The translations under genes were made by a program, and so were the position numbers. This document shows positions 23,639 to 64,000 of a stretch of DNA of 64,000 nt, in pieces; position 1 is the first letter of the stretch; every line of letters starts with the position of its first letter. The notes beneath the pieces are model-generated. The model was given only the letters and a program-made list of their open reading frames with translations, had not been told where the DNA came from and did no database searches. This stretch comes from Candidatus Latescibacterota bacterium. Its GTDB lineage: Bacteria > Latescibacterota > UBA2968. The DNA is taken from the NCBI GenBank assembly GCA_965207885.1, contig OZ242311.1, forward strand, positions 2,880,001-2,944,000, in the 5' to 3' direction.

Positions 23639-23709
23639 TGCGAGAGGTATGAATCACACTAAAAGCCCACGTCCTCTGACTGTGGGCTTTTAGTCTTTAC
23701 ATCATTGTA
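23639..23709 (+). repeat. 71-bp repeat R1 containing a perfect 13-bp terminator-like stem
   Basis: ACTAAAAGCCCAC-N11-GTGGGCTTTTAGT; second copy at 24538-24608 (about 60/71). Confidence 0.85.
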
Positions 23710-23763
23710 AAACAATGATATATATTACATGCAAACCTGCACTTGCGGAGCGTATATCTATCA

Positions 23764-24525
23764 ATGAATGATTCCCTGTCATATTCAGTTGCGGTAATTG
23801 CAGATATTCACGGCAACGTCGCTGCACTCAACGCTGTCCTTGAGGATCTGCAAAGCCAATCCTATGATCGTCTGGTGGTCGCTGGTGACTTAGTGCTGAA
23901 CGGACCCCGCCCAGTCGAGAGTCTTGACACGATACGAAATCTGGGTGTTCCCACGATTTACGGGAACGCAGACCTGTTGGTCTTTGATGAACAGTATTCC
24001 GAGGAAAGACTGGACTGGGTGAGAGAGAAGCTAGGAACAGATGGATTGAGCTATCTAAAGAATCTGCCCTTTGAGCACCGGATAACCCCACCAGGAGGGC
24101 AGTCTCCGGAGGATGATCTTCTCATTGTCCACGCAACGCCTACTGATGTGGCCGGTTTTTTGGTTCTTCAACCTGATCAGGATCCGTTCAGACTTCTGAC
24201 CGTTACGCCAGAAGAGGAGGCCAGGACACTGCTCGGGGATGCGAAGGCCAATCTGATTGTGGCAGGACACTTGCACTATGCGTCCTATGGCGTTCCGTGC
24301 GGTCAGCGATATAGCATCATTGATTCAGTTGGGTTTCCGTTTGATGGGGATCATCGAATCGGATATGCCAGAGTGTGGTGGGATGGGCAGGAATGGCGTG
24401 TGGAGAATCACAGATTAAGTTACGATTACCACAAGGTTGTGGAGGATGTCAGGTGTTGTGGTGCGCCTTTTGGTGAGTTGTCAGCCCAAAGGATTCTTCA
24501 AACCAGGTTCAGGCCGGTAATGTAG
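23764..24525 (+). CDS. Metallophosphoesterase family protein
   Basis: IADIHGN, AGDLV, GNAD, VHATP, GHLH. Confidence 0.9.
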   Translation: MNDSLSYSVAVIADIHGNVAALNAVLEDLQSQSYDRLVVAGDLVLNGPRPVESLDTIRNLGVPTIYGNADLLVFDEQYSEERLDWVREKLGTDGLSYLKNLPFEHRITPPGGQSPEDDLLIVHATPTDVAGFLVLQPDQDPFRLLTVTPEEEARTLLGDAKANLIVAGHLHYASYGVPCGQRYSIIDSVGFPFDGDHRIGYARVWWDGQEWRVENHRLSYDYHKVVEDVRCCGAPFGELSAQRILQTRFRPVM

Positions 24526-24537
24526 AATCAGAAGCCG

Positions 24538-24608
24538 TGCGAAAGGTAGAAATCACACTAAAAACCCCTGTCCTTTGACTGTGAGCTTTTAGTCTTTACA
24601 AGGTTGTA
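24538..24608 (+). repeat. 71-bp repeat R2, decayed copy of R1
   Basis: Ungapped match to 23639-23709 with stem-breaking substitutions. Confidence 0.85.
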
Positions 24609-24695
24609 GCTCACATTGGGTTAATCTTCTCTGGAGAAAAGCTAGTGACTGAAGTCAGATACAACAGGCCAATTTGGGCGGGTAGAAACCCTCTA

Positions 24696-25517
24696 ATGAA
24701 CCATCCCTTACCTCCCACACCCCTTGCTGATGTCAATCTGGTCCTTGACCATTTCAGCGCACAACTCCAAGCACTCTTACAGCGCGACCTTCTCGGCATC
24801 TATATGGTGGGCTCACTCGCTCTGGGTGATTTCAGCCCGCGCAGCAGCGACATTGATTTTGTTGTCGTGACAACTACAGCGATTACTCCTGATCGCTTGG
24901 CTGCCTTGCAACACATTCACGCGCAGTTTGCTGCGAGCGATTCTGCTTGGGCCGAGAAAATTGAAGCGATCTATGTTCCCCCTTCTGCGTTCCGTCACAG
25001 CGCGGCAAACAGCTTGCACTATCCACAAATCGAAAAAGGCACATCGCTTTTCCTTACTCCGCTCGAAGACGGATGGGTCTTCCAATGTCTCACGATCCGT
25101 GACCATAGCGTAACCGTTATCGGACCCGATCCGCGGCCATTGGTCAACACAATCGAAACCCAGGAACTCCACGCCGCAGCAATGATGATCGTCGGCCAGT
25201 GGATGGAACAGGCATCACACGATCCAACCTGGTTGCCGTGGCTACGCAAGCGTGGTGCTCATGTGTTTGTCGTCCAAACACTGTGTCGTTTGCTGTATGC
25301 GCTAGCAAGTGAAACCGTGACCTCAAAGCCCCGCGCTGCTGAGTGGGCTCAAAAGAGCTGCGGAGAACCGTGGGCCACATTCATCGAGCAATCGCTTGTC
25401 AAACAGCATCGTGCGGGAAACATAACGCAGAATGAAGAGAATAAGACGCTGGCCTTCCTGGAATTCACCTGTGAACAGATTCAGCGTTCTGCTGCCTTAA
25501 TCCAGAATGCGGGCTAA
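24696..25517 (+). CDS. Nucleotidyltransferase, AadA/DUF4111-like
   Basis: GIYMVGSLALGDF...SDIDFVV; LCRLLY...TSKPRAAEWA. Confidence 0.82.
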   Translation: MNHPLPPTPLADVNLVLDHFSAQLQALLQRDLLGIYMVGSLALGDFSPRSSDIDFVVVTTTAITPDRLAALQHIHAQFAASDSAWAEKIEAIYVPPSAFRHSAANSLHYPQIEKGTSLFLTPLEDGWVFQCLTIRDHSVTVIGPDPRPLVNTIETQELHAAAMMIVGQWMEQASHDPTWLPWLRKRGAHVFVVQTLCRLLYALASETVTSKPRAAEWAQKSCGEPWATFIEQSLVKQHRAGNITQNEENKTLAFLEFTCEQIQRSAALIQNAG

Positions 25518-25688
25518 CCAGCCATTGCAGCCGAACTCGCCGAGCGAGATCAGGACGATCTTACACTTCCAGTGCGGCGTTAGTGAAAAGAATCACGCCG
25601 CCTAACACAGCGTTTTGCGCTGCGCGCCATTCGGCGCTTGGCCTTCGGCAACCCGCTTCGCAGGTTCGCACACGCCAAAATGTTACAC
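25512..25688 (+). other. Two tandem degenerate attC-like sites
   Basis: GGCTAAC (contains gene stop)...GTTAGTG at 25512-25585; GCCTAAC...TTTTGCG/CGCCAAAA stem...GTTACAC at 25600-25688. Confidence 0.55.
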
Positions 25689-25767
25689 GCAAGTGGCGCA
25701 AGAACTCCCTCAATCAACCCCACTCCGGCAGATTGTGCTCAAAAAAATCTGAAGACTGGTAAACCTA

Positions 25768-26367
25768 ATGCGTTTTCACTTTATTCGCCACGGTAAGAGA
25801 GATCGCAAGATCGGCGACCCTTCATTGACATCAAAAGGGCAAGAAGAGACAGAACTACTCGCCAGGAAGTTAGCATCAAATGGCATCACACGAATCTTCA
25901 GCAGTCCACTGGCACGAACAAGAGAGACAGCAGAGATCATCGCCACCATTTTGAATCTTGAAGTTACTGAAGATTCACGGCTACGTGAACGAATGAATTG
26001 GGGTGACATCGAAGGCCAATCTTTCGATGAATTCATAGCTCAGTGGGAGCGTTGTAACAGAGAAAGAGATTACCAACCCGGTGTTGGCGATTCAAGCATC
26101 GAGGCTGGCAGACGCATTGAGGCATTTGTTTCCGATTGCTATCGTCAGTCATCCAAAGATACTGTGATTGGGGTGACCCATGGCGGTATCTTAGCAGACT
26201 TCCTTCTCAACGTTTTTTCGTTTGAAGAACTGAATCGCATTAGTCCGAAATTCTGCAATGACCCATACAGTGGTGAAGTAATGCGTGAATGCTCTGTTAC
26301 GACGATTGCATACGATGGCAACCAATATCGACTCGACGCTGCTGGGGCTATCTTATTTGAGTATTAA
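25768..26367 (+). CDS. Histidine phosphatase family protein
   Basis: IRHG, SSPLARTRETA, LRE, VTHGG. Confidence 0.9.
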   Translation: MRFHFIRHGKRDRKIGDPSLTSKGQEETELLARKLASNGITRIFSSPLARTRETAEIIATILNLEVTEDSRLRERMNWGDIEGQSFDEFIAQWERCNRERDYQPGVGDSSIEAGRRIEAFVSDCYRQSSKDTVIGVTHGGILADFLLNVFSFEELNRISPKFCNDPYSGEVMRECSVTTIAYDGNQYRLDAAGAILFEY

Positions 26368-28646: not shown

Positions 28647-28772
28647 AGAAGTGAGCATGCCGCATAACACAACAGTGAGTAGGCTCACATCTCAGGCATT
28701 AACAAATTTGGACCTGACGCAGAAATCTTTCTGATCAACCCGAACCCCTCTTCCCTTAAAATGGTGGACCAC

Positions 28773-29285
28773 ATGGACAATCGTATTCTTGCTTTCACCC
28801 TACTCGCAGTACTCCTTTCAACAACGGTTTCACAAGCAGAGGATTGGTGGAAAGTCAGGCTGGATCAATTCAATCACCAGAAATTCAGCAAGGCTGTGAG
28901 CAGAGTCGATGAACACTTCCGAAAAGTTCAAGGACTGACTCGATTGCTCGCTGAGAATAGCGACAATGAGCGCTTTCGGAAGCGGGGCTTTATTTACGTT
29001 TCTCAGGTACCAGAAGGGAAGTCTGTCACCTTTAAAGTGGAAGGTCAGAAGCTAGCCCAATACACAATCCTGGACTGGGACATGCAGTATATTGGGTTTC
29101 CGAATCTTGTAACTCAACTCAAAGGCTACGGCTATGTTACGCAACGTGAAATCCTGCAACTTCGATTGGAAAACTTGCGACTTAAGGATGCACCAGAGAC
29201 GGAAACAAAGAAACTTGAGGAATCTCTGAGGAATCTGGAAGAAGAGATCAAAGACTTTACTTCAAAGACGAAATGGGTTGACTGA
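28773..29285 (+). CDS. Secreted hypothetical protein
   Basis: Signal peptide MDNRILAFTLLAVLLSTTVSQA; C-terminal coiled coil. Confidence 0.7.
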   Translation: MDNRILAFTLLAVLLSTTVSQAEDWWKVRLDQFNHQKFSKAVSRVDEHFRKVQGLTRLLAENSDNERFRKRGFIYVSQVPEGKSVTFKVEGQKLAQYTILDWDMQYIGFPNLVTQLKGYGYVTQREILQLRLENLRLKDAPETETKKLEESLRNLEEEIKDFTSKTKWVD

Positions 29286-29346
29286 TACAAGCGAAGATGA
29301 TTAGACTTTCTCTTGAGGTTTTCACAATACGACGGACCGTTTAACG

Positions 29347-29751
29347 ATGCCATCACATTACGTAAAAGCAGGCGTTGCCGGAGTGATTCTCAGAGGCAAC
29401 CAAATTGTAATGGTTCGCCGTAAATACGGGACACATAAAGGGAAGTGGTGTATCCCTTGCGGAAATGTTGAGGTTGGTGAGGACGTCCGAACTGCCGTGA
29501 GGCGCGAGATTAAGGAAGAGACTGGTCTGGATGTAGAAGTCGGTGACGTCGTGGATGTGCTCTCGACTCATCACTCGCCTGAGCGGAGTGTGGTAGGAGT
29601 GTGGTTTCTCGTTAAAGAAAAGGGCGGTAATCTGGTCGCAGGGGACGATGCTGCTGAAGTCCAGTTATTCCCTCTCGAGGAGCCGCCAGCAGATATGGCA
29701 TTCGAGGCGGATAGGAAGATAATTGAGCGACTGAAAACCACGAACTTGTGA
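29347..29751 (+). CDS. NUDIX hydrolase (copy 1)
   Basis: GNVEVGEDVRTAVRREIKEETG; GDDA. Confidence 0.92.
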   Translation: MPSHYVKAGVAGVILRGNQIVMVRRKYGTHKGKWCIPCGNVEVGEDVRTAVRREIKEETGLDVEVGDVVDVLSTHHSPERSVVGVWFLVKEKGGNLVAGDDAAEVQLFPLEEPPADMAFEADRKIIERLKTTNL

Positions 29752-31861: not shown

Positions 31862-32075
31862 TGGCAGGTCCCAAGTTTGGTAGACAAACAAATTTACTCT
31901 ACCCTTTCCAAGCTAATTTCGGAAACATCTTACAGATTGCCTGATACGATTACAGCCTTCCACCCCAACCTCCTTTTCATACTCTACCTCAATAATCCCC
32001 AGAGTGCATCCATTATGTTGATTTCATGAGAACTGAAATTGCCAATAACCGAAATCACTTCTTTGGGGCAGACAC

Positions 32076-34562
32076 ATGCTGAAAAATTATCTCAAAATAA
32101 TGCTGAGAAACCTGATAAACCATCGTTTCTACTCAGCTCTGAACATTATCGGATTAGCCATTGGTTTGGCTTGTTGTATCCTGATAGGCCTCTATATCGA
32201 CTATGAATTAGGTTTTGATCAGAACCAAAGGAATCGAGATCAAATTTACAGGGTGATTCGAGAGACTAAAACAGTTGACCAAGCAGCTTTTAGTGAGCGC
32301 ACATTAGGAGGTCTCGTAGAAGTCTTGAATCAGGATGTATATCCTGAAATTTCTGAGGCTTTGCGTATCCATCGCTGGCAAAGAACAATAATTGCTGACA
32401 ATAAGAGAATATACAAACAAGCCTTTTGCCTTACAGACGAGAATGTTCTACAGGTTTTTGACTTTCCACTGATTCAAGGCGATCCCGAAACGGTTCTCTC
32501 AGAACCAGGTTCCGTTTTAATCACTCACAGACTTGCACACAAACTGTTTGGCACTGAAAATCCGATTGGCAAAACCATTCTGATCGAGGAAGACGACAAA
32601 GATTATGCGCATCACGTTACAGGCGTCTTAAAAAATATGCCTGAGCAGACGGCCATTCGGTTCGATATTTTATCGGCGACTAAAAATGGGCGATGGCAAG
32701 AAAAATGGATGGCTTGGAAACCGAGAGGGGGGCGTCCTGTAGAAAGCTATATTTTGCTTAAAGAAGGTTATGATGCGAATCAACTTGAAGGCAAACTTTC
32801 AGATCTGATTCCGAAATACCTGGGCGAAGCAGCTGCAAATAACATTCAATATCATTTGCAGCCCCTAAACCGCATCCATCTATACTCCAATCATGATTAT
32901 GGCATCAAAATTGAGAATCGTGGTACTCCAGAGACCAGTAAACCTCATGGTGACATTCAAAATGTGTATTTGTTTTCTTTGCTTGCTATTTTTATTTTAG
33001 TAATTGCCTGTGTGAATTTTATAAACCTAACAACTGCTCGTGCAATTGGGCGGAAGCGAGAGGTCGGGCTTCGTAAGGTTGTCGGTGCAAACCGATTGCA
33101 ACTCATCACACAATTTTTGGGCGAATCTATATTTTTTGCTTGTATGGCGCTTATCTTGGCTTTGGTGTTGGTAGAATTGGCATTGCCAACTTTCAATTCG
33201 TTTTTTGATCGCGCTATTACACTCAATGTCAACACAACCCAGTTATTGCTCAGCCTTTTCGGTCTTATATTCATCGTCGGTATTCTGGCAGGGAGTTATC
33301 CGGCATTTGTCTTATCGACATTTCGCCCTGTTTCAATGTTGAGAGGTAAATCCGCTACAAACGTCTCTACTCGGCTTCGCAAGAGTTTGGTTGTAGGACA
33401 ATTTGCGCTTGCCATTTTATTGATGGTTGTCACTTGGGGTGTTTACAGTCAACAGAAATTTCTTCGAAATAAGAATCTGGGATTCGACCGCGAGCAGATT
33501 ATTGAAGTTCCAATTTTTGAGGCAGCGAATAGCAACCAGATGATCAATCCCACGCTTTTCAAGAGCCAATACAACGCCATCAAGCAGGCATTCACGACGC
33601 ATCCCAATATTCTCAGAGCAACAACCACCCGTGGCCCTGTTGGAGAAGGAGCAACAGTAGAGACATTCCATCCCGAAGGAAAATCCACGTACAGTATGGA
33701 TGTGATAATCGTGGATGAAGATTTTCTAGATTTCTATGGCATTAAATGCGTATCAGGCCGGAATTTCACGCGATCATATGCCGAAACAACAAACCCGCAA
33801 AGACTGAGGGAAAAATTAGACGAGCAGTTTATCTTGAATGAAACAGCGGTCGAGCAATTGGGTTGGACAAATCCAATAGGGAAACGATTTGCTTGGAAGG
33901 TTGGAGGCACGTTCTACCCAGATGGACTACGCTCCGGGACAGTCGTCGGTGTTGTCAAAGATTTTCATTACAAACCTCTTGACGAAAAAATCGGACGACT
34001 CGTATTGGTTGCAGAATTTCATGAGGCAAGGCTACTATACCTAGAGGTCAAATCTGAAGATTTATCTCAAACACTGGCATTTGTACAAAAAGTCTGGGAA
34101 AGGTATATATCCAATCGTCCATTCACATTTTCTTTTCTTGATGAGAATTTGGATCGAATCTATAAAAATGAAAGAAAATTGAGCTATATTTTTGGTTTCT
34201 TTTCAACCCTTGGTATTTTGATTGCCTGCTTGGGGTTACTTGGGTTGGCCACATTGAGTGCGCAATACCGTACAAAAGAAATCGGCATTCGCAAGGTATT
34301 GGGAGCGTCTGTATCCAATATTGTTATGTTGCTATCCAGTGATTTTGCAAAGTTGGTCGCACTTGCAAATCTCTTGGCCTGGCCGATTGGCTACTATGCC
34401 CTGTGGCAGTGGCTTCAGAATTATGCGTATCGGGTAGATCTTGGATTTGAGTTCTTTATGTTAAGTGGTATCTTGGCTTTCCTTATTGCCATGATCACAG
34501 TGAGTTTCCAGACAATGAAGGCAGCTCGATCAAATCCTGTAGATGCCTTGCGGAATGAATAA
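32076..34562 (+). CDS. ABC transporter permease (MacB/FtsX type)
   Basis: MLKNYLK...NIIGLAIG; REVGLRKVVGA; KEIGIRKVLGAS; NPVDALRNE. Confidence 0.93.
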   Translation: MLKNYLKIMLRNLINHRFYSALNIIGLAIGLACCILIGLYIDYELGFDQNQRNRDQIYRVIRETKTVDQAAFSERTLGGLVEVLNQDVYPEISEALRIHRWQRTIIADNKRIYKQAFCLTDENVLQVFDFPLIQGDPETVLSEPGSVLITHRLAHKLFGTENPIGKTILIEEDDKDYAHHVTGVLKNMPEQTAIRFDILSATKNGRWQEKWMAWKPRGGRPVESYILLKEGYDANQLEGKLSDLIPKYLGEAAANNIQYHLQPLNRIHLYSNHDYGIKIENRGTPETSKPHGDIQNVYLFSLLAIFILVIACVNFINLTTARAIGRKREVGLRKVVGANRLQLITQFLGESIFFACMALILALVLVELALPTFNSFFDRAITLNVNTTQLLLSLFGLIFIVGILAGSYPAFVLSTFRPVSMLRGKSATNVSTRLRKSLVVGQFALAILLMVVTWGVYSQQKFLRNKNLGFDREQIIEVPIFEAANSNQMINPTLFKSQYNAIKQAFTTHPNILRATTTRGPVGEGATVETFHPEGKSTYSMDVIIVDEDFLDFYGIKCVSGRNFTRSYAETTNPQRLREKLDEQFILNETAVEQLGWTNPIGKRFAWKVGGTFYPDGLRSGTVVGVVKDFHYKPLDEKIGRLVLVAEFHEARLLYLEVKSEDLSQTLAFVQKVWERYISNRPFTFSFLDENLDRIYKNERKLSYIFGFFSTLGILIACLGLLGLATLSAQYRTKEIGIRKVLGASVSNIVMLLSSDFAKLVALANLLAWPIGYYALWQWLQNYAYRVDLGFEFFMLSGILAFLIAMITVSFQTMKAARSNPVDALRNE

Positions 34563-34597
34563 AAAAAACATGCTCCTGAAAAATCTCTAAGGAATAC

Positions 34598-35317: not shown

Positions 35318-35352
35318 TTTTCCACCGAGTTGTGTTCAGTCGGGGGTGAATC

Positions 35353-35494
35353 TGAAGAACTGAGTCGCATCAGTCCGGAATTCTGCAATGACCCATACAG
35401 TGGTGAAGTAATGCGTGAATGCTCCGTTACGACGATTGCATACGATGGCAACCAATATCGACTCGATGCTGTTGGGGCTATGCACCACCTATAA
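35353..35494 (+). pseudogene. Duplicated 3' fragment of the histidine phosphatase gene
   Basis: 35353-35481 matches 26223-26351 (about 123/129), then reads GAMHHL-stop. Confidence 0.9.
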
Positions 35495-35583
35495 TCCTCT
35501 TGTTTATCCCAACGGATAGCGCTATTTTTTCATACTATTGGCTGAGGTTATACCACCAGGCAGATTGAAAATGGAGTAAATGT

Positions 35584-35811
35584 ATGACAAATTGGGAAAC
35601 ATGCGATGCGGTTGAGCGCCATCCCAAAAAGGTCAGTGGAGCCTGGATATTTCGTGGCACTCGGGTTCCTGTATCCGCGCTTTTCGAGAATCTCAAAGAT
35701 GGGGCTTCGATTGAGCAGTTTCTGGAATGGTTCCCCGGCGTAAAACGATGGCAGATCGAAACGGTTCTCGATCACGAAGTGAAGGCGTTGGCGGGCTCTG
35801 TTGATTCATGA
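35584..35811 (+). CDS. DUF433 family antitoxin
   Basis: SGAWIFRGTRVPVSALFENL...IEQFLEWFP. Confidence 0.88.
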   Translation: MTNWETCDAVERHPKKVSGAWIFRGTRVPVSALFENLKDGASIEQFLEWFPGVKRWQIETVLDHEVKALAGSVDS

Positions 35812-36125
35812 GAATTCTATTTGATCAGGGCACCCCCGTGCCTCTTCGACGATATCTGTCAAATCACTCGGTCGATACCGCCTTTGAGCGGGGATGGTCC
35901 CACCTTCAAAATAGCGAGTTGCTTCAGGCGAGTGAGCAGGATGACTACCAACTCTTGATCTCTACAGACCAAAATCTTCGATACCAACAGAATCTGTCCG
36001 GCAGACAGCTGGCGATCATCGTTCTGCTTTCGACTTCATGGCCACGAATCCAGTTGCGAATTGATGACATCCAGGCTGCTGTTGATAAAATAGCTCTAGG
36101 TGACTACATAGAGATTCCAATCTGA
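35808..36125 (+). CDS. DUF5615/PIN-like toxin
   Basis: MRILFDQGTP...LISTDQNLRYQQNL; ATGA overlap with the DUF433 gene. Confidence 0.85.
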   Translation: MRILFDQGTPVPLRRYLSNHSVDTAFERGWSHLQNSELLQASEQDDYQLLISTDQNLRYQQNLSGRQLAIIVLLSTSWPRIQLRIDDIQAAVDKIALGDYIEIPI

Positions 36126-36413
36126 GGCTGTGGCGATCATAGACGCGGCAAATTTTTTCGGTTCCCGCTGGACGACCTATCTGGCGGGATTTCTGCAAGT
36201 GTTGTTCGTCCGCTCCCCACCCCAGGCTGGCACAGCACACAACAAGACGGTTGCAAGTTGCGCTCCCTTCGGTCGCTCCAACCCAAGTGGCCGTGAGTGA
36301 TGGGTTGGCTGATGGGAAACAGGTGATCTGTTTCCTGATGCATTGCCACTTAGGCAACCGCAGGCCGTTACCTGCAATGCGCCGCTACGGCCAGTCCTGG
36401 GCCGAGAAAACCA

Positions 36414-37392: not shown

Positions 37393-37485
37393 AAGGCGAG
37401 AATCAGCCAATCCGATGCTCGCCGTCCCCCAACCGCTTCGTGGTTCGGGAGTAATGAAACGTTATGTGACATAGGAATAGGCGAG

Positions 37486-44164: not shown

Positions 44165-44623
44165 ATGAGCCACAACGATTATATGCGACAGGCCATTGCA
44201 ATGGCGCAGAAGGCACCCAAGTCTCCGTTCGGCGCGGTGATCGTTCGACAGACAACAGGCGAGATCATCGCAAAAGGGGTTAACCGTTCTTCGGAAGATC
44301 CGACACTCCACGGCGAGATTGACGCGATCAATCGTTGTGCGGCAGCCCATTCACAGATCGACTGGACAGAACTCGATTTGTATACGACAGCTGAGCCGTG
44401 CCCCATGTGTCAAAGTGCCATCGAGTGGGCCGGAATTTCTACTGTTTACTATGGGACTTCGATCCCTTATCTGCAAAGCCTCGGTTGGCGGCAAATCGAT
44501 ATCCGCGCCAAAGAGGTGGCTCGCCGTACTCCATTTCGGCAGACCAAAGTAATCGGCGGTATTCTCGAGTTCGAGTGTAATGCCCTGTTTGAGGCCGCCC
44601 ACAAAAGTGACTCCAAGGAGTGA
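44165..44623 (+). CDS. Nucleoside deaminase (CMP/dCMP deaminase fold)
   Basis: PFGAVIV, HGE, EPCPMC. Confidence 0.9.
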   Translation: MSHNDYMRQAIAMAQKAPKSPFGAVIVRQTTGEIIAKGVNRSSEDPTLHGEIDAINRCAAAHSQIDWTELDLYTTAEPCPMCQSAIEWAGISTVYYGTSIPYLQSLGWRQIDIRAKEVARRTPFRQTKVIGGILEFECNALFEAAHKSDSKE

Positions 44624-44651
44624 GTCTATATATAGTTTGGGGTAAGAAAAT

Positions 44652-45929
44652 ATGGAGCATATGAAAGACGATGTAGATGTGCTCGTAGTTGGCGGAGGCA
44701 CAGCGGGCACGATTGCTGCCATACAAGGGGGGCGCGCGGGACTTCGCACGGCTCTGGTTGAATCTGGCAGTCAACTCGGCGGTGTCACCACAACAGGCGG
44801 CGTTTCCTTCCCCGGGCTTTTTCATGCCTGGGGAAAGCAGATTGTCGCGGGCATTGGATGGGAACTAGTTATAAAAGCAGTGGCACTTGACAGTGGTCAA
44901 CTGCCGGATTTTTCCGTCTTCTCTCCTGAGCGCCATTGGATGCACCAGATACGCATCAATGGCCCTGTATATGCGGCACTTGCAGAAGAAGCCTGTACTC
45001 AAGCAGGTGTGCAATTGCACTTTTATGAAATACCGACGCAAATTTTAGAAACAGACAGAGGTTGGAAAATCGAGACTGTCGGAAAAAACCTGCGGCGCAC
45101 CATCCTGACCAAACAGTTAATTGACTGCACCGGCGGAGCAAATATTGTGGGCCAGATCGGTTTTCCTCGTTTGCGCGAAGAAGAAACACAACCGGGCACA
45201 TTGATTTTTAAACTGGGTGGTTATGATGTTGATACGCTGGACGAAGATGTCATACAGAGACAGTTTATCGCAGCCATGAAAGATGGCCGATTACAACACG
45301 GCGATGTAAGCAATCCGCGCGCACGGTTCATCGGCTACCTTGGAAAAGGCGGAGAAAATGCCCAGCATGTATTTGGCGCTGATGCATCGACCTCTGACAG
45401 GCATACAAAAACCAACATTGCAGGGCGACAATCTTTGTTGCGGATTTTGCGGTTTGTACGTTCACTGCCTGGATGCGAAAATGCCCGCGTTTTAAAAGCG
45501 CAGGCAGAAACCGCTGTGCGCGAAACCTATCGCATTGTTGGAGAGGAGCAGATAACTCACGATGATTATACCAGTGGCCGACATTTTGAGGACGCTGTAT
45601 CGTACTCTTTTTATCCAATTGACCTCCATGACAAAGACGGTGTAAAGCCCCAACCTCTGTCTGAAGGCACAGTTGCAACAGTTCCACTACGCGCACTGAT
45701 CCCTAAAAACAGTCATAATTTACTCGTCGCTGGACGCAGTGTGAGCAGTGACCGACTTGCAAATTCTGCTTTGCGAGTACAGGCATCCTCAATGGCTATG
45801 GGACAGGCAGCGGGTGCAGCAGCAGCAGTATCTGTGCGTTTGGAAACAACACCCCGCGACGTTCCGCTTTCTGATTTACACGATCTACTCGTGCTACACG
45901 GCGCAGTTGTCCCTAAAAAAGACATCTAA
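44652..45929 (+). CDS. FAD-dependent oxidoreductase
   Basis: VVGGGTAG, IDCTG, VRETYRI, LLVAGRS, MGQAAG. Confidence 0.9.
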   Translation: MEHMKDDVDVLVVGGGTAGTIAAIQGGRAGLRTALVESGSQLGGVTTTGGVSFPGLFHAWGKQIVAGIGWELVIKAVALDSGQLPDFSVFSPERHWMHQIRINGPVYAALAEEACTQAGVQLHFYEIPTQILETDRGWKIETVGKNLRRTILTKQLIDCTGGANIVGQIGFPRLREEETQPGTLIFKLGGYDVDTLDEDVIQRQFIAAMKDGRLQHGDVSNPRARFIGYLGKGGENAQHVFGADASTSDRHTKTNIAGRQSLLRILRFVRSLPGCENARVLKAQAETAVRETYRIVGEEQITHDDYTSGRHFEDAVSYSFYPIDLHDKDGVKPQPLSEGTVATVPLRALIPKNSHNLLVAGRSVSSDRLANSALRVQASSMAMGQAAGAAAAVSVRLETTPRDVPLSDLHDLLVLHGAVVPKKDI

Positions 45930-45950
45930 AAAACAAAGGCCGAACTTTTT

Positions 45951-47375
45951 ATGCCTGAAAAACCTGATATTATCTGGATTTACTGTGACGAACTGCGCAC
46001 CGATGCGCTGGACTGTTATGGGCATCCCAGATTGCAGTTGCGCACGCCAAATCTCGACCGTTTGGCGTGCAGCGGTGTGCGATTCACAAATAACTTTTGC
46101 AATGCGCCTGTTTGTGTTGCCTCCAGATATTGCACGCTAACTGGTCTCTATCCCGAAGACACAGGCGTGTACAACAACGAAGGTGCATGGCCAAATTTCC
46201 GGTTGCCCCGTATCCTGCAAACTTTCCCTAACGTATTTTCACAGAACGGCTATTCAACTGCCAATTTTGGAAAGATCCATGTTGCCCCCGAAATACGTCC
46301 AGGTGCCAATCCAGAGCACGAAATCTTCCAATACCACGACGGAGCAGGTGGTGAAATGAAAATCTGGGAACATCTTGGCGCAGACGCTGTGCAGATGATC
46401 CGCTCGCCCTACGGCGGCATGAACGGCGGTATTTTCCCAGACGGTGAACCCTATCCTCCCGACTCAGTCGTTGAAAATGCTTTACACTGGCTCCAAACGG
46501 CAACCTCCCCTTATCTCGTGCGCATTTCCCTTCTTCAGCCCCACACGCCGGTATTACCTCCAGCACAATATGTAAAGCTTCTCGACGATTGGGATCCCGG
46601 CCTGCCCGATCCGCTGCCTGACACCCTCTCTGCATTTGAAAAACGCGTTGCCGAAGTTTTTGGTGTGGCCAGAATGGATCCCGAAAAACTCCGTGCAGGA
46701 CGCCTTCACTACTACGCACAGGTCGCCTGGATTGACACTCAAGTCGGACGGGTCTTAGAGTTTCTTGAGGAAACTGGACGACAGGAACAAACGCTCATCG
46801 TATTTGGTGCGGACCACGGCAATCCACTTGGCGAGACAGGCGCCTTCGAAAAACTGACTTACACGCCCACAGTGCATCGCGTGCCACTTCTAATCTCCTG
46901 GTCAGACACCATACCTGCAGAGCAAGTGCGGGATGACATCTGCGATAGTCTGGACATTGCACGAACACTCTTTTCTTTTGCCAACATCGAGACACCTTCG
47001 CAATTCAAAGGCCGCGATCTTTTCACTGATCCACCCCCCGACTGTATCTACTCTACAATCGGATATGGCCAGCCATTCAGCAAGATGGCACCCAACGGTG
47101 GCCGTGGCGACTGGTATGGTAATCGCGGTTGGCCACGGCGAAGCTGCATACGCACGAGCCAGTATCGCCTTGATAAAAATGTGTTGCTCAATGGCGAAAA
47201 ACCGAAACCTGAAGATGAAGACATTTTCCTCGCAGATGTGTACGCTGATCCAGAAGAATTCACAAATATAGCACGAGATCCAGAATGTGCAGATGTTGTC
47301 CACCAATTGTCTGATCAACTGGACAAACACACAGCAAATTCTGTAGAAGTAGATCCGTCATGTTTGCAGAGATAG
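45951..47375 (+). CDS. Sulfatase-like hydrolase
   Basis: PDIIWIYCDELR, CVASR (CxxxR) TG, GKIH, PH, ADHG. Confidence 0.9.
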   Translation: MPEKPDIIWIYCDELRTDALDCYGHPRLQLRTPNLDRLACSGVRFTNNFCNAPVCVASRYCTLTGLYPEDTGVYNNEGAWPNFRLPRILQTFPNVFSQNGYSTANFGKIHVAPEIRPGANPEHEIFQYHDGAGGEMKIWEHLGADAVQMIRSPYGGMNGGIFPDGEPYPPDSVVENALHWLQTATSPYLVRISLLQPHTPVLPPAQYVKLLDDWDPGLPDPLPDTLSAFEKRVAEVFGVARMDPEKLRAGRLHYYAQVAWIDTQVGRVLEFLEETGRQEQTLIVFGADHGNPLGETGAFEKLTYTPTVHRVPLLISWSDTIPAEQVRDDICDSLDIARTLFSFANIETPSQFKGRDLFTDPPPDCIYSTIGYGQPFSKMAPNGGRGDWYGNRGWPRRSCIRTSQYRLDKNVLLNGEKPKPEDEDIFLADVYADPEEFTNIARDPECADVVHQLSDQLDKHTANSVEVDPSCLQR

Positions 47376-47471
47376 AAGATGCTTTGGAAAGAGAGCGAGA
47401 ATGAAGCCTGAGAAATCATTCACCCCGGAACTTGAAATGGCCATCATCAAGCACCTCAATAGGAGGAGGAA

Positions 47472-48332
47472 ATGGCAGTGAAAACGGAACTCACAGACGA
47501 AGACCTGGAGCACTTCCGCGAGAACGGTTACCTGGTGCTCCCACAGGCATTCAACGCCGATGAAGTCGCCCGCATGCAACATGAAGCAGATCGGATACTC
47601 GAGCTCATCATCAACTCTTCCCTGGCCAACGGGCGAAAAAGCGGGCGACTCGACATTCTGCAGACATCTACCGGGCCGATGGTGCGCAAGATCCAGCCCA
47701 TTAACGACCTGTCGCTGTTCCTGGCCGGAGTGTCTGCCGACGAACGACTCATCGGACCCATGCGTCAACTCATGGGTGACGAGCCGATTCTCATGGAGGA
47801 GAAGCTGAACTACAAAGAGCCGCTGCCCGAAGCGATAGAGGGCATCCCATTGGTCGATCGAGAAGACCGGTTTCCGGTTCACAACGATTGGGCGTATTAT
47901 CTGGCGCAGGATTACCCGCAAGAGATCATCTCTTCGGCCGTGACTATAGATCCGTACGACGAATCGTCCGGACCGCTTCACGTCTGGCCGGGGAGTCACA
48001 AACAGCACCTGGAACATCGCCGACCACCCAACAAAAGGGGATGGGAAGTGCTACCGGATTTGATCGATTTCGATGGGGGCATCGACCTGTTGGCGCCGCC
48101 CGGCTCCATCATGCTCTTCCATTCGGTGCTGGTCCACAACTCCAGGCCGAATATTTCCGGTCGTCCGCGGAGGCTTATGATCTACAGTCATTACCCCAGG
48201 CAAAGCGACATCGGGCACGATGTGAGGAACGGGCCCAGCAGGCTCAGGGAATCGCCCTACGAGTGGGAGTATCAGCGGGCGAAGGAACGCGGTGAATTCG
48301 AGGATGTGTTCCAGGCGCCGGTGTTTTCCTGA
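47472..48332 (+). CDS. Phytanoyl-CoA dioxygenase family protein
   Basis: FRENGYL, HND, WPGSH, VHNSRPN..RR. Confidence 0.9.
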   Translation: MAVKTELTDEDLEHFRENGYLVLPQAFNADEVARMQHEADRILELIINSSLANGRKSGRLDILQTSTGPMVRKIQPINDLSLFLAGVSADERLIGPMRQLMGDEPILMEEKLNYKEPLPEAIEGIPLVDREDRFPVHNDWAYYLAQDYPQEIISSAVTIDPYDESSGPLHVWPGSHKQHLEHRRPPNKRGWEVLPDLIDFDGGIDLLAPPGSIMLFHSVLVHNSRPNISGRPRRLMIYSHYPRQSDIGHDVRNGPSRLRESPYEWEYQRAKERGEFEDVFQAPVFS

Positions 48333-48377
48333 TTCCTCACTCGCTGAGTTCATTACCTTTTCATACTGGAGGTTTTA

Positions 48378-49691
48378 ATGGCAAAAATTGTAATCATTGG
48401 TGCTGGCAGTGGATTCGGAAGCCGACTGTCCCTCGATATTTTATCTCGTGAATTATTAAACGATTCCACAATCGCACTCTGTGATATCAACGAAGAGCGA
48501 TTGACCCAGGTGCACGATTACGTGAACCGCGCCATTGATGGCCATAGGCTCCCTGGCAAATGCATCGCCAGCACGGATCGCGAAGAATTATTGCCCGGCG
48601 CAGATTTTGTCGTCACTGCCGTATCCATTGGAGGCGCAGCCTACTGGGGCGAACCTTACGCATCTGAAATCAACATCCCCAAAAAGTACGGCATTAACCA
48701 AACTGTCGCCGACACAGTAGGTGTAGGAGGAGTGTTCCGTTATCTTCGCACCGCACACGAGCACCTATCATTTTGCAAAAGCATGGAAAAACACTGCCCC
48801 GATGCACTCATGTTAAATTATACCAACCCCATGGCCATGCTCACCTGGATGCATTCTATCGGTTCATCCATCCAAAACGTCGGCCTCTGCCACAGCGTAC
48901 AGGGCACAACAAAAAAACTGGCAAATGGCATTGACGTTCCCTACGAAGATGTTAGTTACCTCGTTGCGGGGATTAACCACCAGGCCTGGATTCTAAAATT
49001 CAACAGAGACGGCGAAGACCTGTATCCTCGCATCTTCAAAGCCGTCGATACCCATCCCAGTTTCAAAGACGACCTGGTGCGGGTCGAGATGATGAAGCAA
49101 TTTGGCTATTTTGTCACCGAAAGCACCCGACACAATTCAGAATACCTCCCCTACTTCCAGCGCACTCAGGAATTGCGGGACATCTACAACCTGCCAGAAC
49201 GCGATCCCGTCTATATGGAATTGCCCGAAGGCCGCAAACGGTCCTGGATGAAAGACACGGGCATCACAGATGACGATACCGAAGCCGAAGTCCCAAAACT
49301 GCAAGCATCCCACGAATACGCTTCTTCAATCGTAGAAGCAAAAATCACAGGTGTCCCATTTGTCTTCAACGGCAACGTCATGAACAACGGATCTATCACC
49401 AATCTTCCCGACGAATGCTGTGTTGAAGTACCCTGCATGATCGACAGAGAAGGCATTCATCCCTGTTACGTTGGTGAACTCCCGCCTCAGTGCGCCGCAT
49501 TAAACATGACCAACATCGCCGTACAAGAACTCTCCGTCAAAGCTGCAATGGAAAAAAATAAAGAAGCGGCATTCCATGCTTGTGCATTGGACCCACTTAC
49601 TGCATCCGTCGTATCTTTACCCGATATCCGAAAAATGTTTGAAGAACTCTGGGAAGCAGAAGGCGATCGACTCAGTTATTTTGATGCCTGA
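48378..49691 (+). CDS. Family 4 glycoside hydrolase (alpha-galactosidase-like)
   Basis: IIGAGS, DTVGVGGVFR, NYTNPM, GLCHSVQ, GINH, TES. Confidence 0.92.
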   Translation: MAKIVIIGAGSGFGSRLSLDILSRELLNDSTIALCDINEERLTQVHDYVNRAIDGHRLPGKCIASTDREELLPGADFVVTAVSIGGAAYWGEPYASEINIPKKYGINQTVADTVGVGGVFRYLRTAHEHLSFCKSMEKHCPDALMLNYTNPMAMLTWMHSIGSSIQNVGLCHSVQGTTKKLANGIDVPYEDVSYLVAGINHQAWILKFNRDGEDLYPRIFKAVDTHPSFKDDLVRVEMMKQFGYFVTESTRHNSEYLPYFQRTQELRDIYNLPERDPVYMELPEGRKRSWMKDTGITDDDTEAEVPKLQASHEYASSIVEAKITGVPFVFNGNVMNNGSITNLPDECCVEVPCMIDREGIHPCYVGELPPQCAALNMTNIAVQELSVKAAMEKNKEAAFHACALDPLTASVVSLPDIRKMFEELWEAEGDRLSYFDA

Positions 49692-54120: not shown

Positions 54121-54205
54121 TGCAAGCACTAAAGGAAATCGGAGGCTTCGCCGTGATGGGGCCGCCAGCGGTTAACAGGCCGTTAGGCAAAATGCCGCTT
54201 GAGGG

Positions 54206-56824: not shown

Positions 56825-56908
56825 TAGGAAGCGCCTCCTATGATCTCGAAATACATTGATAAACTCAGAGAAGGTGAATCTCTCCAGGCCGATGAGGCTA
56901 AACAATGA
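56825..56908 (+). pseudogene. Duplicated 5' stub of trpD (RBS + 22 codons)
   Basis: About 78/83 identical to 60425-60507; reads MISKYIDKLREGESLQADEAKQ-stop. Confidence 0.9.
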
Positions 56909-57861: not shown

Positions 57862-57957
57862 CGCACAAAAAGCAATATCCTGAATTGCTAACTTTCCTCA
57901 ATAGCTCGGCCGGAAAACCTAAACCCCATCCCATTTGTCTAAAACACATGAACCTTG
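57862..57957 (+). repeat. About 96-bp intergenic repeat, copy 1
   Basis: CGCACAAAAAGCAATATCC...CACATGAACCTTG, also at 61545-61641. Confidence 0.9.
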
Positions 57958-60349: not shown

Positions 60350-60439
60350 AATTGTCACACCTACATCGGCAATGGCAGCCGTTTCACACTCAAGGCAAGC
60401 TTCTGGATAAAAGGACTATCTGAATAGGAAGCACTACCT

Positions 60440-61456
60440 ATGATCTCGAAATACATTGATAAACTCAGAGAGGGTGAATCTCTCCAGGCCGATGAGGCTG
60501 AACAATGTCTGAGTGCAATCCTGGAAAGTAACCTGCCAGACGAACAGATCGCAAAACTGCTCATAGCGTTCTCTGGGAAGGGCGAAACTGCCGATGAAAT
60601 TCTCGGATTTTCGAGAGCTTTATTGACCAAAGCAAGACCTGTACCTCTCCCTTCCTCCGTCATTGATTCGTGTGGCACAGGTGGAAGCGGTTTAAATCGA
60701 TTCAACGTATCTACAACCGCTGCGTTCGTTTTATCTGCTGGTGGCGTTCCGGTGGTGAAACACGGCAATAAAGGATCAAAGCGACCGAATGGAAGCTTTG
60801 ATTTGCTGGAAGAACTCGACTGTGAGTTTGATTTCAGAGATGACCGTTTAGAGGACATTTTCAGGAGAACGAATGTATGTTTTCTGTTTGCCCGCATATA
60901 CCACCCAGTAATGAAAAAAGTGGTGACCGCCAGACAAATGGTTGACAAGAGGACGATTTTCAATCTCAGCGCTCCGTTATGTAATCCTGCCAATCCCCAA
61001 TATCAGATACTCGGAACAATTGATGTCGATATGGGCAGACAACTGGTAGAAGTGCTCCGCCATCTTGGGCGTAAACGCTTCTTGATTGTTGTCGGAGAGC
61101 CGGGGATTGATGAGATCTCCATTTCTGGACACACGCATATCTTTGAAGTGGCCGAAGGTGTGACCAGAGAATACCAGATTTCGCCTTCAGATTTTGGGAT
61201 AGCAAAATGGGATTACAGTGAGATTCCAGGTGGTGATAGTGACGAGAATGCAGAAATCTTCCTATCTCTTTTACAGCACCAAACTCCCGAACCAATTCTG
61301 GATCTGGTGTGTTTGAATGCCGGTGCAGCTTTCTACTGTTTTGGACGCACAGATTCGATTGAGGAAGGCTTTGATCTGAGCAAGGATCTCTTCGCAAAAG
61401 GGTTGGTTCAAGAGAAATTTCTTAAATATAAACGACTGTCCAGCAAGCAGAAGTGA
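60440..61456 (+). CDS. trpD: Anthranilate phosphoribosyltransferase (stand-alone)
   Basis: KGETADEI, DSCGTGG, FNVST, KHGN, RTIFN, GIDEIS, LNAGAA. Confidence 0.85.
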   Translation: MISKYIDKLREGESLQADEAEQCLSAILESNLPDEQIAKLLIAFSGKGETADEILGFSRALLTKARPVPLPSSVIDSCGTGGSGLNRFNVSTTAAFVLSAGGVPVVKHGNKGSKRPNGSFDLLEELDCEFDFRDDRLEDIFRRTNVCFLFARIYHPVMKKVVTARQMVDKRTIFNLSAPLCNPANPQYQILGTIDVDMGRQLVEVLRHLGRKRFLIVVGEPGIDEISISGHTHIFEVAEGVTREYQISPSDFGIAKWDYSEIPGGDSDENAEIFLSLLQHQTPEPILDLVCLNAGAAFYCFGRTDSIEEGFDLSKDLFAKGLVQEKFLKYKRLSSKQK

Positions 61457-61544
61457 AAGACAAAAAATAGAAGGGTGTGACGGCTGTCCCTCTATTTCTT
61501 CACTGATGACAAAAACAACTCCCAAATCCCACCCCGCTAAATCG

Positions 61545-61641
61545 CGCACAAAAAGCAATATCCTCAATTGCTAACTTTTCCTCAATAGCCCGGTCGGAAA
61601 ACCTAAACCCCCTTCCATTTGTCTAAACCACATGAACCTTG
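61545..61641 (+). repeat. About 97-bp intergenic repeat, copy 2
   Basis: Matches 57862-57957 with a few substitutions and one indel. Confidence 0.9.
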
Positions 61642-61690
61642 TCTTCCTCACCCTTATGACTTGTAATGCCCAGATCAGGAGGCAAAAACG

Positions 61691-63760
61691 GTGGAGAAAG
61701 CCAAACAGGTGCGGTGGTCATGCGCGATAATTTGGGTGCCAATTGTGCTGCTGACGCTACCGCTTTTCGCAGAAACGCAAAGCTCGACGCGTACTATCAG
61801 TGCCACATGGACGGATAATCCCCCCATTATTGATGGCGAACTTACAGACAGTGACTGGCAACGCGCCCAAATTGCAACCAATTTCTTTCGTGCAAAGGAA
61901 GGAAGCATCCATCCGGCGCAATTGAACACGGAAGTCAGGATTTTGTACGATGAGCATATGATCTATATCGGCGTGCGTTGCGATGAGCCGGACATGAAGA
62001 GTTTGCGCGAGACGAAAATTCGCCGGGATTCCGCCATCTGGCAGAATGACTGTATCGAAGTGATGCTTGATACCTATCGCGACCGTCGCAACTGCTACGT
62101 TTTTGGAATCAATACACTCGGCACACAGATGGACGAGCGGGTCAGTAATGAGAGTGTTTTCGACCTGAGTTGGGATGCAAAATGGAAATCGAAAATAAAA
62201 AAACACCGAAATCACTGGACCGCAGAATTTGCGATCCCGTTTCGCATGCTCCGTTTTAATCGACACAATACGACGTGGGGAATCAACTTTTGGCGGACAC
62301 ATCCGATAAATGGTCAATCCTATTCGTGGGCACGCACCGATTTTTTCGGGCGCGTATCGGAGTTTGGCGATTTGACCGGATTGGATTTCGGAAAGATCAA
62401 AACAGAGCAGAAGATCGGTATTCTCCCCTACGGGACCTATCGTGCAATAGAAAATCGTTCCAATGACCACGATGGTGGTTTAGACCTGATTCTCCCGATC
62501 TCGACGCACCTCACCTCGAATGTGACTTTCAATCCCGATTTTTCACAATTGGAAAGTGACCCGACGCAAATTAACATATCAAGTGACCGGGAATTGTCTC
62601 TCCCAGAACGCCGTCCATTCTTCCGGGAAGGTGCTGAACTGTTCAGGCTGCCGCTCAATTTATTCTATACCCGTCGCGTTCAAGAAATCGATTTTGGTGT
62701 AAAAACAGCAGGTAAAATTGGCGGTTCTAATTTCGCGGTCATCAATACTTACGGCAAAATGATCGATCGGTACGATGCGGATAAAAAAAAGCAGGCAAAT
62801 CTTTTGGCCGGGCGGGTTAATTACGATATCGGTGAGCGCACTGTCATCGGTGCAATGGGAATCCATAAACACCAGGCAGATCGAGATGTGGCACTCCTAT
62901 CGCTCAATGGTCGATTTGGACTTCATCGAGACTGGACTGTAACGTCGCAGTATGCTGTCGATTTCATCGATGGCGAAACGCATTGGGCGTATCACACCGA
63001 GATGGAATGGCTTCATGAAGGTTGGCTCACCGAAATCGCGTTTGAAGAGATTCAGGACGGTTTTCGTCCAAATGAGATGGGGCTTGAAGATGAGGCATTC
63101 CGTCGGGGCCGTGCTCGCGTGAGGTACAGACACGAGTTTCCAGAGGCGAATCTCTTGCAGTCATTTGGTGCTGATATGCGCCATTTTTATCAAACCAATG
63201 CACAAAAATTGCTGCGGGAACGGCGGAGTGAGTTCCGTTTTGATATTGATATTGGCCGATTTGATTTCTTTACCTATGGTGGGTTTGGCGCTCTTCGCGA
63301 AGTCGGTCAACTTTTCGATACCAGGTTTATCGGCTCATTGATTGATTACCAGGCACCGTGGTGGCACCTGGAGGTTTCAAATCGCTTTGGAATCCGTCGA
63401 GATGAATTCAACCGATTTACCAGCTTCTCTGCGGGTGTCAACCTCTTTGGCAAATTGACCGCTGATCTCGACCTGGATAATTTTTTTTGGCGTACACATC
63501 GAAATACGCTAATTTTCCGGCTCCGCAGTAACTATCAATTGACCCAAAAGATCGGCTGGCGCATTTTTTTTGAACGCGTAGATGAACGGTTGCAAGATGA
63601 GATCAGCTACAATTTCAACGCAATCTTCGACTACGAGTTCACCCCAGAGAGCCACTTCTATTTTGTGTTTGTTGATAGACTCCCAGGTGGACGAGCTGTG
63701 TTTACAAAGCTCGCGTATCTTTTTGAAGTCAGTTTCCCAGATTTTGGTCGATTTTATTGA
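61691..63760 (+). CDS. CBM9-like/DUF5916 domain exported protein
   Basis: Signal peptide; PIIDGEL..DW, WTAEFAIPF, WGINF, NPDFSQLESD, PERRPFF, FYTRR. Confidence 0.85.
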   Translation: MEKAKQVRWSCAIIWVPIVLLTLPLFAETQSSTRTISATWTDNPPIIDGELTDSDWQRAQIATNFFRAKEGSIHPAQLNTEVRILYDEHMIYIGVRCDEPDMKSLRETKIRRDSAIWQNDCIEVMLDTYRDRRNCYVFGINTLGTQMDERVSNESVFDLSWDAKWKSKIKKHRNHWTAEFAIPFRMLRFNRHNTTWGINFWRTHPINGQSYSWARTDFFGRVSEFGDLTGLDFGKIKTEQKIGILPYGTYRAIENRSNDHDGGLDLILPISTHLTSNVTFNPDFSQLESDPTQINISSDRELSLPERRPFFREGAELFRLPLNLFYTRRVQEIDFGVKTAGKIGGSNFAVINTYGKMIDRYDADKKKQANLLAGRVNYDIGERTVIGAMGIHKHQADRDVALLSLNGRFGLHRDWTVTSQYAVDFIDGETHWAYHTEMEWLHEGWLTEIAFEEIQDGFRPNEMGLEDEAFRRGRARVRYRHEFPEANLLQSFGADMRHFYQTNAQKLLRERRSEFRFDIDIGRFDFFTYGGFGALREVGQLFDTRFIGSLIDYQAPWWHLEVSNRFGIRRDEFNRFTSFSAGVNLFGKLTADLDLDNFFWRTHRNTLIFRLRSNYQLTQKIGWRIFFERVDERLQDEISYNFNAIFDYEFTPESHFYFVFVDRLPGGRAVFTKLAYLFEVSFPDFGRFY

Positions 63761-63773
63761 GTGGAGATCCAGA

Positions 63774-64000
63774 ATGGATGATCATGCGTTTTCAGAGATT
63801 CGGGATATGCTGGATCTGGGTCGGTTTCCCCAGAGCCAGATTACGCTCTTGGATATATCGGAAAAGCTTCTGACGGAAGCAGCGAGACGGCTGGAAGAGA
63901 CCGGTGCCGAGTTCAGAACCGTTGTCGGGGATTTGTTCGCAGATGATGACGTACAACTTGAAGCCGATTCGTTCGATTGTGTGGTCTCATCGTATGCGCT
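63774..64000 (+). CDS. Class I SAM methyltransferase-like ORF (truncated by window edge; motif I incomplete)
   Basis: MLDLG-RFPQSQITLLDISEKLL...GDLF...SFDCVVSSYA. Confidence 0.6.
   Translation, partial: MDDHAFSEIRDMLDLGRFPQSQITLLDISEKLLTEAARRLEETGAEFRTVVGDLFADDDVQLEADSFDCVVSSYA

Follow-up and report, generated by a model that had tools for sequence, protein, structure and literature searches.

A 42-kb one-strand gene array in a Candidatus Latescibacterota bacterium is probably a decayed integron-type array without a recombinase

The DNA analysed here is a stretch of 64,000 nucleotides (hereafter the window) from the genome of a Candidatus Latescibacterota bacterium, which we designate G000 and which is a 6.23-Mb single contig of 97% completeness; the window corresponds to G000:C1:2880001-2944000. 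Its subject is an array of about 40 genes with a total length of 42 kb, which starts after a gene for a UVR-motif protein (23625) and ends at an insertion sequence (IS) at about 65.7 kb, approximately 1.7 kb beyond the window. The open reading frame (ORF) listing and Pfam scans of 50 sequences, of which 43 were + strand ORFs of the run, six were genes from upstream and one was a competing - strand ORF, placed every Pfam-supported ORF from 20509 to past 64000 on the + strand, with 40-41 such genes within 23639-64000. The competing long - strand ORF (54381-55097), preferred by a crude ORF caller, had no Pfam hit, and the overlapping + strand ORF (54411-55058) encodes a HAD hydrolase. At the G000 strand-switch rate of 0.233 per gene junction, obtained with the crude ORF caller, only 0.012 runs of at least 44 genes are expected genome-wide. 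The next longest one-strand runs in G000 have 32 genes, and other runs of 20-32 genes exist. The 20 kb upstream include core genes, e.g., rpsB and LytB, and switch strand 8 times in 23 genes.

The array is rich in recurring families, with five APH, four GNAT, three NUDIX, two HAD and two FAD_oxidored matches in Pfam and one DUF433/DUF5615 pair, in which the DUF5615 match scores under the Pfam cut-off. Its other genes have unrelated functions and encode a metallophosphoesterase, an AadA-like nucleotidyltransferase, a histidine phosphatase, a methyltransferase, an LRR protein, an 828-aa MacB/FtsX permease, a PD40 protein, a deaminase, a sulfatase, PhyH, GH4, an S8 protease, AKR, SDR, Ham1, a TrpD-like protein and a CBM9 protein. 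Gene GC ranges from 0.40 to 0.64 and GC at third codon positions from 0.34 to 0.79; the standard deviation of gene GC (0.050) is high, yet lies inside the genome 95th percentile for 40-gene windows (0.055). The array carries none of the marks of a genomic island or prophage in the Pfam, Rfam and tRNA scans: searches of the locus returned no tRNA gene and no Rfam hit, integrase, transposase and phage families had no match among the Pfam-scanned ORFs of 23.6-64 kb, and conjugation families were likewise absent. A first-pass annotation made from the sequence alone had described functionally unrelated genes on one strand, with sharply varying base composition and no integrase, transposase or phage gene, behind a backbone that often switches strand, and this description is confirmed. 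The strand run truly begins three genes before the array, at 20509, the gene content is family-rich, and the base composition does spread widely, for which "sharply" is a somewhat overstated word. The main gene features are as follows.

20509..23625, + strand: left flank with a 383-aa gene without assigned function, an Ldh_2 dehydrogenase and the UVR-motif protein (Pfam); conserved backbone.
23640..64000, continuing to ~65720, + strand: variable cassette array, a mosaic of modules common to relatives in other orders.
23764..24525, + strand: metallophosphoesterase module (Pfam).
24645..25517, + strand: AadA-like nucleotidyltransferase cassette ORF (Pfam), with a strong attC site after it.
29300..29599, + strand: NUDIX gene duplicate, 98% identical to its second copy at 39713-40012 (repeat families D1, D8, D12).
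31952..34574, + strand: module of the 828-aa MacB/FtsX permease (Pfam).
35497..36378, + strand: toxin-antitoxin-like (TA) cassette with DUF433 (35584-35811) and DUF5615-like (35808-36125) genes (Pfam) and a weak attC at its end.
36414-37301, + strand: APH gene upstream of a marginal attC-like site.
44165..49691, + strand: multi-gene block of dCMP deaminase, FAD oxidoreductase, sulfatase, PhyH and GH4 (Pfam).
65721-66671 (window-equivalent), - strand: 0.95-kb IS with a DDE transposase at the right end of the array.

The junctions between the genes carry gene stubs and direct repeats. The TrpD stub listed below, together with a repeated 3' flank (57862-57957 matching 61545-61641), brackets an unrelated 287-aa gene (56932-57795). 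Among candidate short motifs, AAGCGGCRAAAA was rejected as an enriched window motif (16 matches vs 14.4 expected), and GCAGGTCCC was rejected as a general core site, since it flanks one APH module only.

23639..23709, + strand: terminator-like hairpin repeat (repeat family D4; folding), 85% identical to copy 2 at 24538-24608; the copies flank the metallophosphoesterase module.
35353..35481, + strand: stub of a His_Phos_1 gene 3' end, 95% identical to 26223-26351 (repeat family D2).
39689-39713, + strand: repeated stub of the start of the gene upstream, beside NUDIX copy 2 (repeat families D1, D8, D12).
56825..56907, + strand: stub of a TrpD-like gene 5' end, 94% identical to 60425-60507 (repeat families D3, D5, D9).

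Beyond the window, the array continues with an ORF of the glyoxalase family and a stub derived from the 287-aa gene before it meets the 0.95-kb IS. An inverted twin of this IS at 78409-79360 brackets rearranged backbone and not the array, so that, as regards a composite transposon, an IS stands at the right end of the array only. The DNA past the IS maps 90-290 kb from the arrays in relatives, from which we conclude that the right end in G000 is an inversion breakpoint. This IS type has at least 20 copies in G000. Another 1.2-kb IS copy with a DDE_Tnp_1 transposase lies at 908-2104 of the window (ORF 926-2041, - strand) and has at least 13 copies in the genome at 99-100% identity. The many identical IS copies and the GC skew, which flips sign about ten times, indicate that G000 is heavily rearranged in an IS-driven manner.

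To compare the locus between species, both halves of the region were used as DNA queries against 30 relatives, and the array regions of ten genomes were compared. The left flank was present in all 18 genus genomes drawn, and 17.7-23.7 kb form a single collinear piece with 91-95% identity in the closer genus species and 80-85% in the deeper ones. Behind it, the array type recurs in every compared closer genome as gene-sized pieces in other orders and combinations, with all array matches except one IS running in the same direction; each relative's array covers 31-64% of that of G000. In four species that branch deeper within the genus, the UVR gene is followed by different genes and not by an array. 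Four complete genomes have the same DNA next to the far array border, and its equivalent in G000 is found, in reverse orientation, at 2.785-2.793 Mb. This places the array between two conserved flanks; the array lengths in these genomes are about 17, 29, 40 and 45 kb. The multi-gene block 44165..49691 is a single 5-kb piece in four relatives and is split at gene borders in others.

In most genomes compared, the array modules are more similar between species than the backbone beside them. Shared single-gene modules in sister species are often 96-99.7% identical, and array identity exceeded backbone identity in six of seven genomes, e.g., 96.9% vs 93.8% in G010. The permease module is 99-100% identical in seven genus genomes with a 91-95% identical backbone. 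The sharing reaches beyond the genus, as the metallophosphoesterase and HAD modules are adjacent and 95-96% identical in another family of the order, and cassettes common to the G000-type and sister-family arrays have 91-96% identity. The metallophosphoesterase protein shows 91-95% amino acid (aa) identity in the sister family and 82-92% in a Paenibacillus isolate genome and in metagenome-assembled genomes (MAGs) of Gemmatimonadota and Chlorobiota, for whose assignments binning errors are possible; the other hits had at most 38%. In the Paenibacillus prosopidis record (L031:1618-2637), the metallophosphoesterase cassette has 85% aa identity, similar flanks, a GTTACAC core and a weak attC match of 30.6 bits, a resemblance that hints at a cassette transfer across phyla.

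Alignment of one module across its different contexts exposed attC-like sites. A strict scan for the canonical site (complementary RYYYAAC/GTTRRRY with an L-box pair) gave one match per strand in the array vs 0.5 expected and was dropped as too crude, and a loosened R''/R' scan gave background density in all arrays and was replaced by covariance models. Model R1 was built with alignment A1 from ten attC-like sites and model R2 from the 34 best R1 sites. R1 detected 40 sites when applied to 497 kb of arrays, every one in the sense of the array genes. A scan with R2 of 80 loci around metallophosphoesterase homologues gave 59 matches, which fell in 16 of the loci and again all had the orientation of the genes; 61 control loci, whose homologues are all distant, had none. 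In 32 distinct sites, with the alignment fitted to the model, 87.5% of the helix cells were paired vs 70% in shuffles, and 17 of the 21 pairs showed double changes; in slid controls of the alignment the pairing dropped to about 30%. A covarying family of attC hairpins marks these arrays. The following sites of this family were found at the G000 locus.

25595..25692, + strand: intact attC-type hairpin (R'' ..CTAAC, R' GTTAC..), R1 80.5 bits, R2 78.2 bits, E 2e-16, filters off.
36232-36377, + strand: weak attC closing the TA cassette, R2 20.6 bits, E 0.016.
37393..37471, + strand: marginal attC-like site after the APH gene, 14.4 bits, E 0.48, alone not significant.
54165..54192, + strand: collapsed attC relic with R'' and R' boxes 3 nt apart, inside a doubtful 94-aa ORF (R2 scan, filters off).
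64385-64483 (window-equivalent, past the window), in the sense of the array genes: attC found in the genome-wide scan.

The sequence of the collapsed relic also sits after the metallophosphoesterase gene in relatives, and R''/R' mini-sites of 30-35 nt and half sites occur at other G000 junctions. The half attC-like sites, stubs and direct repeats reported in the first-pass annotation are real; the attC sites comprise a single full one and several that are half or collapsed. The stretch behind the metallophosphoesterase gene was rejected as an attC, since it folds without a single long hairpin and R2 gives no call. Genome-wide scans scored 150 candidates per genome, so that the counts are lower bounds: at least three attC matches in the whole of G000, two of them in the array, at least seven in G006, at least five in G010, and none among the candidates scored in G017. 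The sister family is much denser: G019 carries at least 26 sites across 149 kb, and G039 carries at least 27, at least 21 of them in the main array, which spans 144 kb. The whole-genome scans argue against an evenly spread terminator or repetitive extragenic palindromic (REP) family. The sister-family regions (G019:C5:2210260-2359073 and G039:C1:4608792-4753070) are one-way attC arrays of superintegron scale, each below a co-oriented IntI/Xer-like recombinase gene. The third attC of G000 lies outside the array (G000:C1:2597760-2597860, - strand; L117:9760-9860), 282 kb upstream of the window amid long - strand gene runs, and a 79% paralogue of the array FAD oxidoreductase lies at 2567124-2568383; the region may be a second, mirrored array.

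An integron integrase over the family cut-off was not found in G000, where the best TIGR02249 score was 88.6 bits vs 265 and Xer-like genes are limited to two, located at 0.66 and 1.70 Mb. None of 21 genus genomes and 2 of 53 genomes in the order had an IntI over the cut-off. A different recombinase stands directly after the UVR gene in G005, a 376-aa tyrosine recombinase with Phage_integrase and SAM_4 domains in Pfam; a recombinase trio considered for the three ORFs at this position was rejected, as Pfam shows that the first ORF alone is a recombinase. Homologues of this head recombinase occur at 26 places in 14 of 53 genomes, and G000 has no match at E<=1e-40. In five of the seven places examined (G005, G010, where it is truncated, G019, where it is split over two frames, G039 and G031), it is co-oriented at the head of an attC array, and the attC sites begin 0.9-4.8 kb downstream. 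In G031, a true integron integrase (464 bits) forms a pair with a 314-aa protein related to the head recombinase, encoded 0.4 kb further downstream (G031:C1:2493564-2495727; L113:13504-15745), and no classical divergent array was found beside this integrase. The pair is repeated at G031:C1:2158606-2160412 and may therefore itself be mobile.

Contigs from independent samples show how such arrays differ at present. Logan contigs of run X1, which is possibly the source sample, contained 0.98 of the sampled words at 100% identity to G000, with no alternative joints over 20 kb; RNA runs contained small shares (0.06-0.11). Contigs of three other studies carried the modules at 95-99% identity in other adjacencies, joined at the same module borders, and two of these three non-source runs are labelled marine and sponge metagenome. 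Low depth in the other runs was counted as absence only where a contig joins across. All three contain the joint 35496/35499 to 36379, i.e., the TA cassette is absent there; its borders do not lie on the G|TT core. The joint 41179 to 42153 in other runs removes one APH gene, further joints are 28670 to 30971 and 29314 to 40183, and the joint 36715 to 37471 in two other runs ends at the marginal attC-like site. One contig from another study spans 24003-25647 exactly as in G000. The near-identical arrays of G004 and G015 (97-99% vs 94.8% for the backbone) differ by indels that either have direct repeats of 5 and 8 nt at their borders or are stub-leaving deletions inside genes, and none of these indels lies at an attC core.

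The strict orientation of the attC family, its density in the sister family and the IntI-like recombinase at the head of relatives' arrays suggest that the G000 locus is what remains of a site-specific cassette system after its decay. We estimate a probability of roughly 0.6 that it is a recombinase-less integron-type array, now changed by homologous and illegitimate recombination. Cassettes, each a gene with a folded attC-type site, would have been inserted singly and in one orientation by the tyrosine recombinase at the array head, which would explain the one-strandedness, the tight packing and the unrelated functions. The recombinase would then have been lost or broken in nearly all species of the genus, and most attC sites would have been deleted or collapsed to half sites, so that the modules without attC are presumably former cassettes. 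The present variation could have arisen by homologous recombination between the arrays of related species, anchored on shared cassettes, by microhomology deletions and by duplications that left gene stubs and direct repeats, and the right end in G000 would have been cut off by an IS-associated inversion.

Several results weigh against this reading. Only one of about 41 window junctions has a significant attC, so that the integron origin of most modules is deduced from neighbours and relatives, and about half of the 41 junctions are shorter than 60 nt and thus too short for an attC. R1 and R2 are models of one attC family built here, in place of the general model of IntegronFinder. In G015, array identity is not above backbone identity. 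Aligned with the true IntI of G031, the head recombinase has 34% identity and shows gaps of 30 and 10 residues precisely where the IntI-specific insertion lies, and it remains under the cut-off of both TIGR02249 (IntI; 214 bits vs 265) and NF040815 (XerA/"integron integrase"; 216 vs 220), so that it falls outside IntI by insertion and by curated cut-off; its scores on the IntI and XerA models exceed those on XerC and XerD. Its action at attC sites is a putative role. In G020 the recombinase is inverted inside an array, in G044 the contig piece that carries it has no attC, and G030 and G031 hold multi-copy relatives, hence it could be a mobile element landing in arrays.

The first-pass annotation had proposed that the locus is a fixed chromosomal accretion site where single genes from many donors, some of them former cassettes, are added or swapped by homology-anchored recombination; we take this here as a site independent of integron machinery throughout, with such recombination as its sole mechanism. 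Its fixed site is borne out in a subclade of the genus by the conserved left flank and by the right flank shared in the four complete genomes, and the variable content by the mosaic order and combination in sister genomes. Homology-anchored change is also supported, as recent events look homologous or illegitimate and not like attC crossovers; the claim of many donors was tested for one cassette, that of the metallophosphoesterase. The lack of attC at most junctions, the gene stubs and flank duplications, the recent indels away from attC sites and the lack of IntI over the cut-off in 21 genus genomes fit a mechanism independent of integrons. However, this mechanism accounts neither for strictly oriented, covarying attC sites that are dense in a sister family with common cassettes at 91-96% identity, nor for the IntI-like recombinase at the array head in relatives, and homologous recombination alone leaves a one-way run of about 40 genes unexplained; we therefore consider it unlikely.

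We consider it quite improbable that the cassette system is still active, with a recombinase on an unbinned plasmid, in another strain or as an IntI acting in trans, and with short or non-canonical sites missed by the model. Near-identical modules across species, such as the permease, the mini-sites at some junctions and the TA cassette cleanly present or absent beside its attC in other samples would agree with activity, but neither IntI nor the head recombinase was found in the nearly complete genome, the TA cassette borders are off the core, and the indels between close arrays lie at microhomologies. An assembly artefact is very unlikely. All compared genomes, including G000, are metagenome assemblies, which itself counts against our interpretation, and 99%-identical cassettes could have misled an assembler into joining co-occurring relatives, as the many GC-skew sign changes in G000 might also suggest; nevertheless, the X1 contigs, possibly from the source sample itself, match G000 with no alternative joints over 20 kb, a contig from another study bridges 24003-25647 as in G000, and differing arrays stand behind the same flank in all seven genus genomes fetched. 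There is hardly any chance that the locus is an ordinary chromosomal stretch with genes co-oriented with replication. The local GC skew becomes positive where the strand run begins, and G000 has other long runs, but species with 91-95% backbone identity differ in the genes they carry here and in gene order, deeper genus members carry other genes after the UVR gene, and attC sites, stubs and cross-family sharing are present.

Integrons are defined by IntI and attC and are known mainly from Proteobacteria. In sedentary chromosomal integrons, e.g., the Vibrio cholerae superintegron, IntI lies beside attI and a uniform attC follows nearly every cassette, and such arrays occupy one fixed locus, where GNAT, NUDIX, TA and uncharacterised genes are stored in large numbers and in a single direction, with content that varies between relatives. 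The G000 array resembles them as a one-way gene bank at a conserved site, and the sister-family arrays of ~145-150 kb also have an attC after nearly every cassette; G000 differs in lacking both this feature and a neighbouring IntI. Natural transformation reportedly shuffles cassettes in chromosomal integrons, according to a 2025 study in Nucleic Acids Research, where horizontal transfer changes arrays in a way close to the exchange proposed here; unlike in G000, that system has a working integrase.

According to the IntegronFinder definition, a complete integron consists of a tyrosine recombinase with an IntI-specific additional domain, located beside the array, and one or more attC sites, each an imperfect palindrome that folds and bears R''/L'' and L'/R' boxes (PMC4889954). 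With the models built here, G000 has such a site at 25595-25692 and no IntI beside the array. A cluster of attC sites lacking integron integrase (CALIN) requires at least two attC on one strand within 4 kb and no intI nearby (Cury et al. 2016, PMC4889954), and that paper reports an average of 5 attC sites and the authors' view that CALINs possibly arise by integrase loss. The co-oriented cassettes, the attC-type sites and the lack of an integrase nearby or in the genome are CALIN-like, whereas 39 kb separate the strong G000 sites (25.6 kb and 64.4 kb), most genes have no attC, and 42 kb with ~40 genes is far above the average reported there (PMC4889954). With the one-family models, the sole close pair is 36232-36377 and 37393-37471, with E 0.016 and 0.48. 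According to Wu, Doak & Ye (2013, PMC3607928), Treponema phagedenis has kept cassettes and attC sites at a locus of its chromosome but has no intI there, which the authors explain by recent loss. The co-orientation of the relatives' head recombinase with the cassettes resembles the atypical Treponema integron layout described there, whereas the Treponema integrases are reported as intI (PMC3607928) and the head recombinase is under the cut-offs and without the IntI-specific insertion.

On a broader level, the arrays of G000 and its relatives widen the known range of very large cassette arrays to include an uncultured phylum. They form a natural series from attC-dense to almost attC-free arrays at comparable sites, which makes the decay of a gene-capture system directly accessible to study. 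The IntI-specific domain is held essential for recognising folded attC sites, and the head recombinase is a candidate with which to probe whether it is really needed for cassette recombination. We tentatively raise the possibility that Latescibacterota carry a separate integron-like capture lineage, with arrays of up to ~150 kb and a co-oriented head recombinase that is intermediate between IntI and Xer and lacks this domain; G000 would then be a gene bank left after recombinase loss, with its sites eroded, kept in place and still passed from species to species through homologous recombination. A literature search that left most subscription journals and supplements outside found no paper that treats integrons and attC sites together with Latescibacter*, nor, among the publications listed, any on attC arrays headed by Xer-like recombinases in related phyla. 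Annotators should bear in mind that former cassette arrays, which attC-based tools miss, may underlie long co-directional stretches of small genes of the detoxification type (APH, GNAT, NUDIX, HAD).

Two further genes of the window deserve mention. A 392-aa ORF without a Pfam hit (38014-39192) lies in the kilobase with by far the top GC skew of the window (+0.369). In the upstream backbone, 16759-17580 (- strand) encodes a protein made up of LDL-receptor class B (YWTD) repeats, which are known chiefly from eukaryotes.

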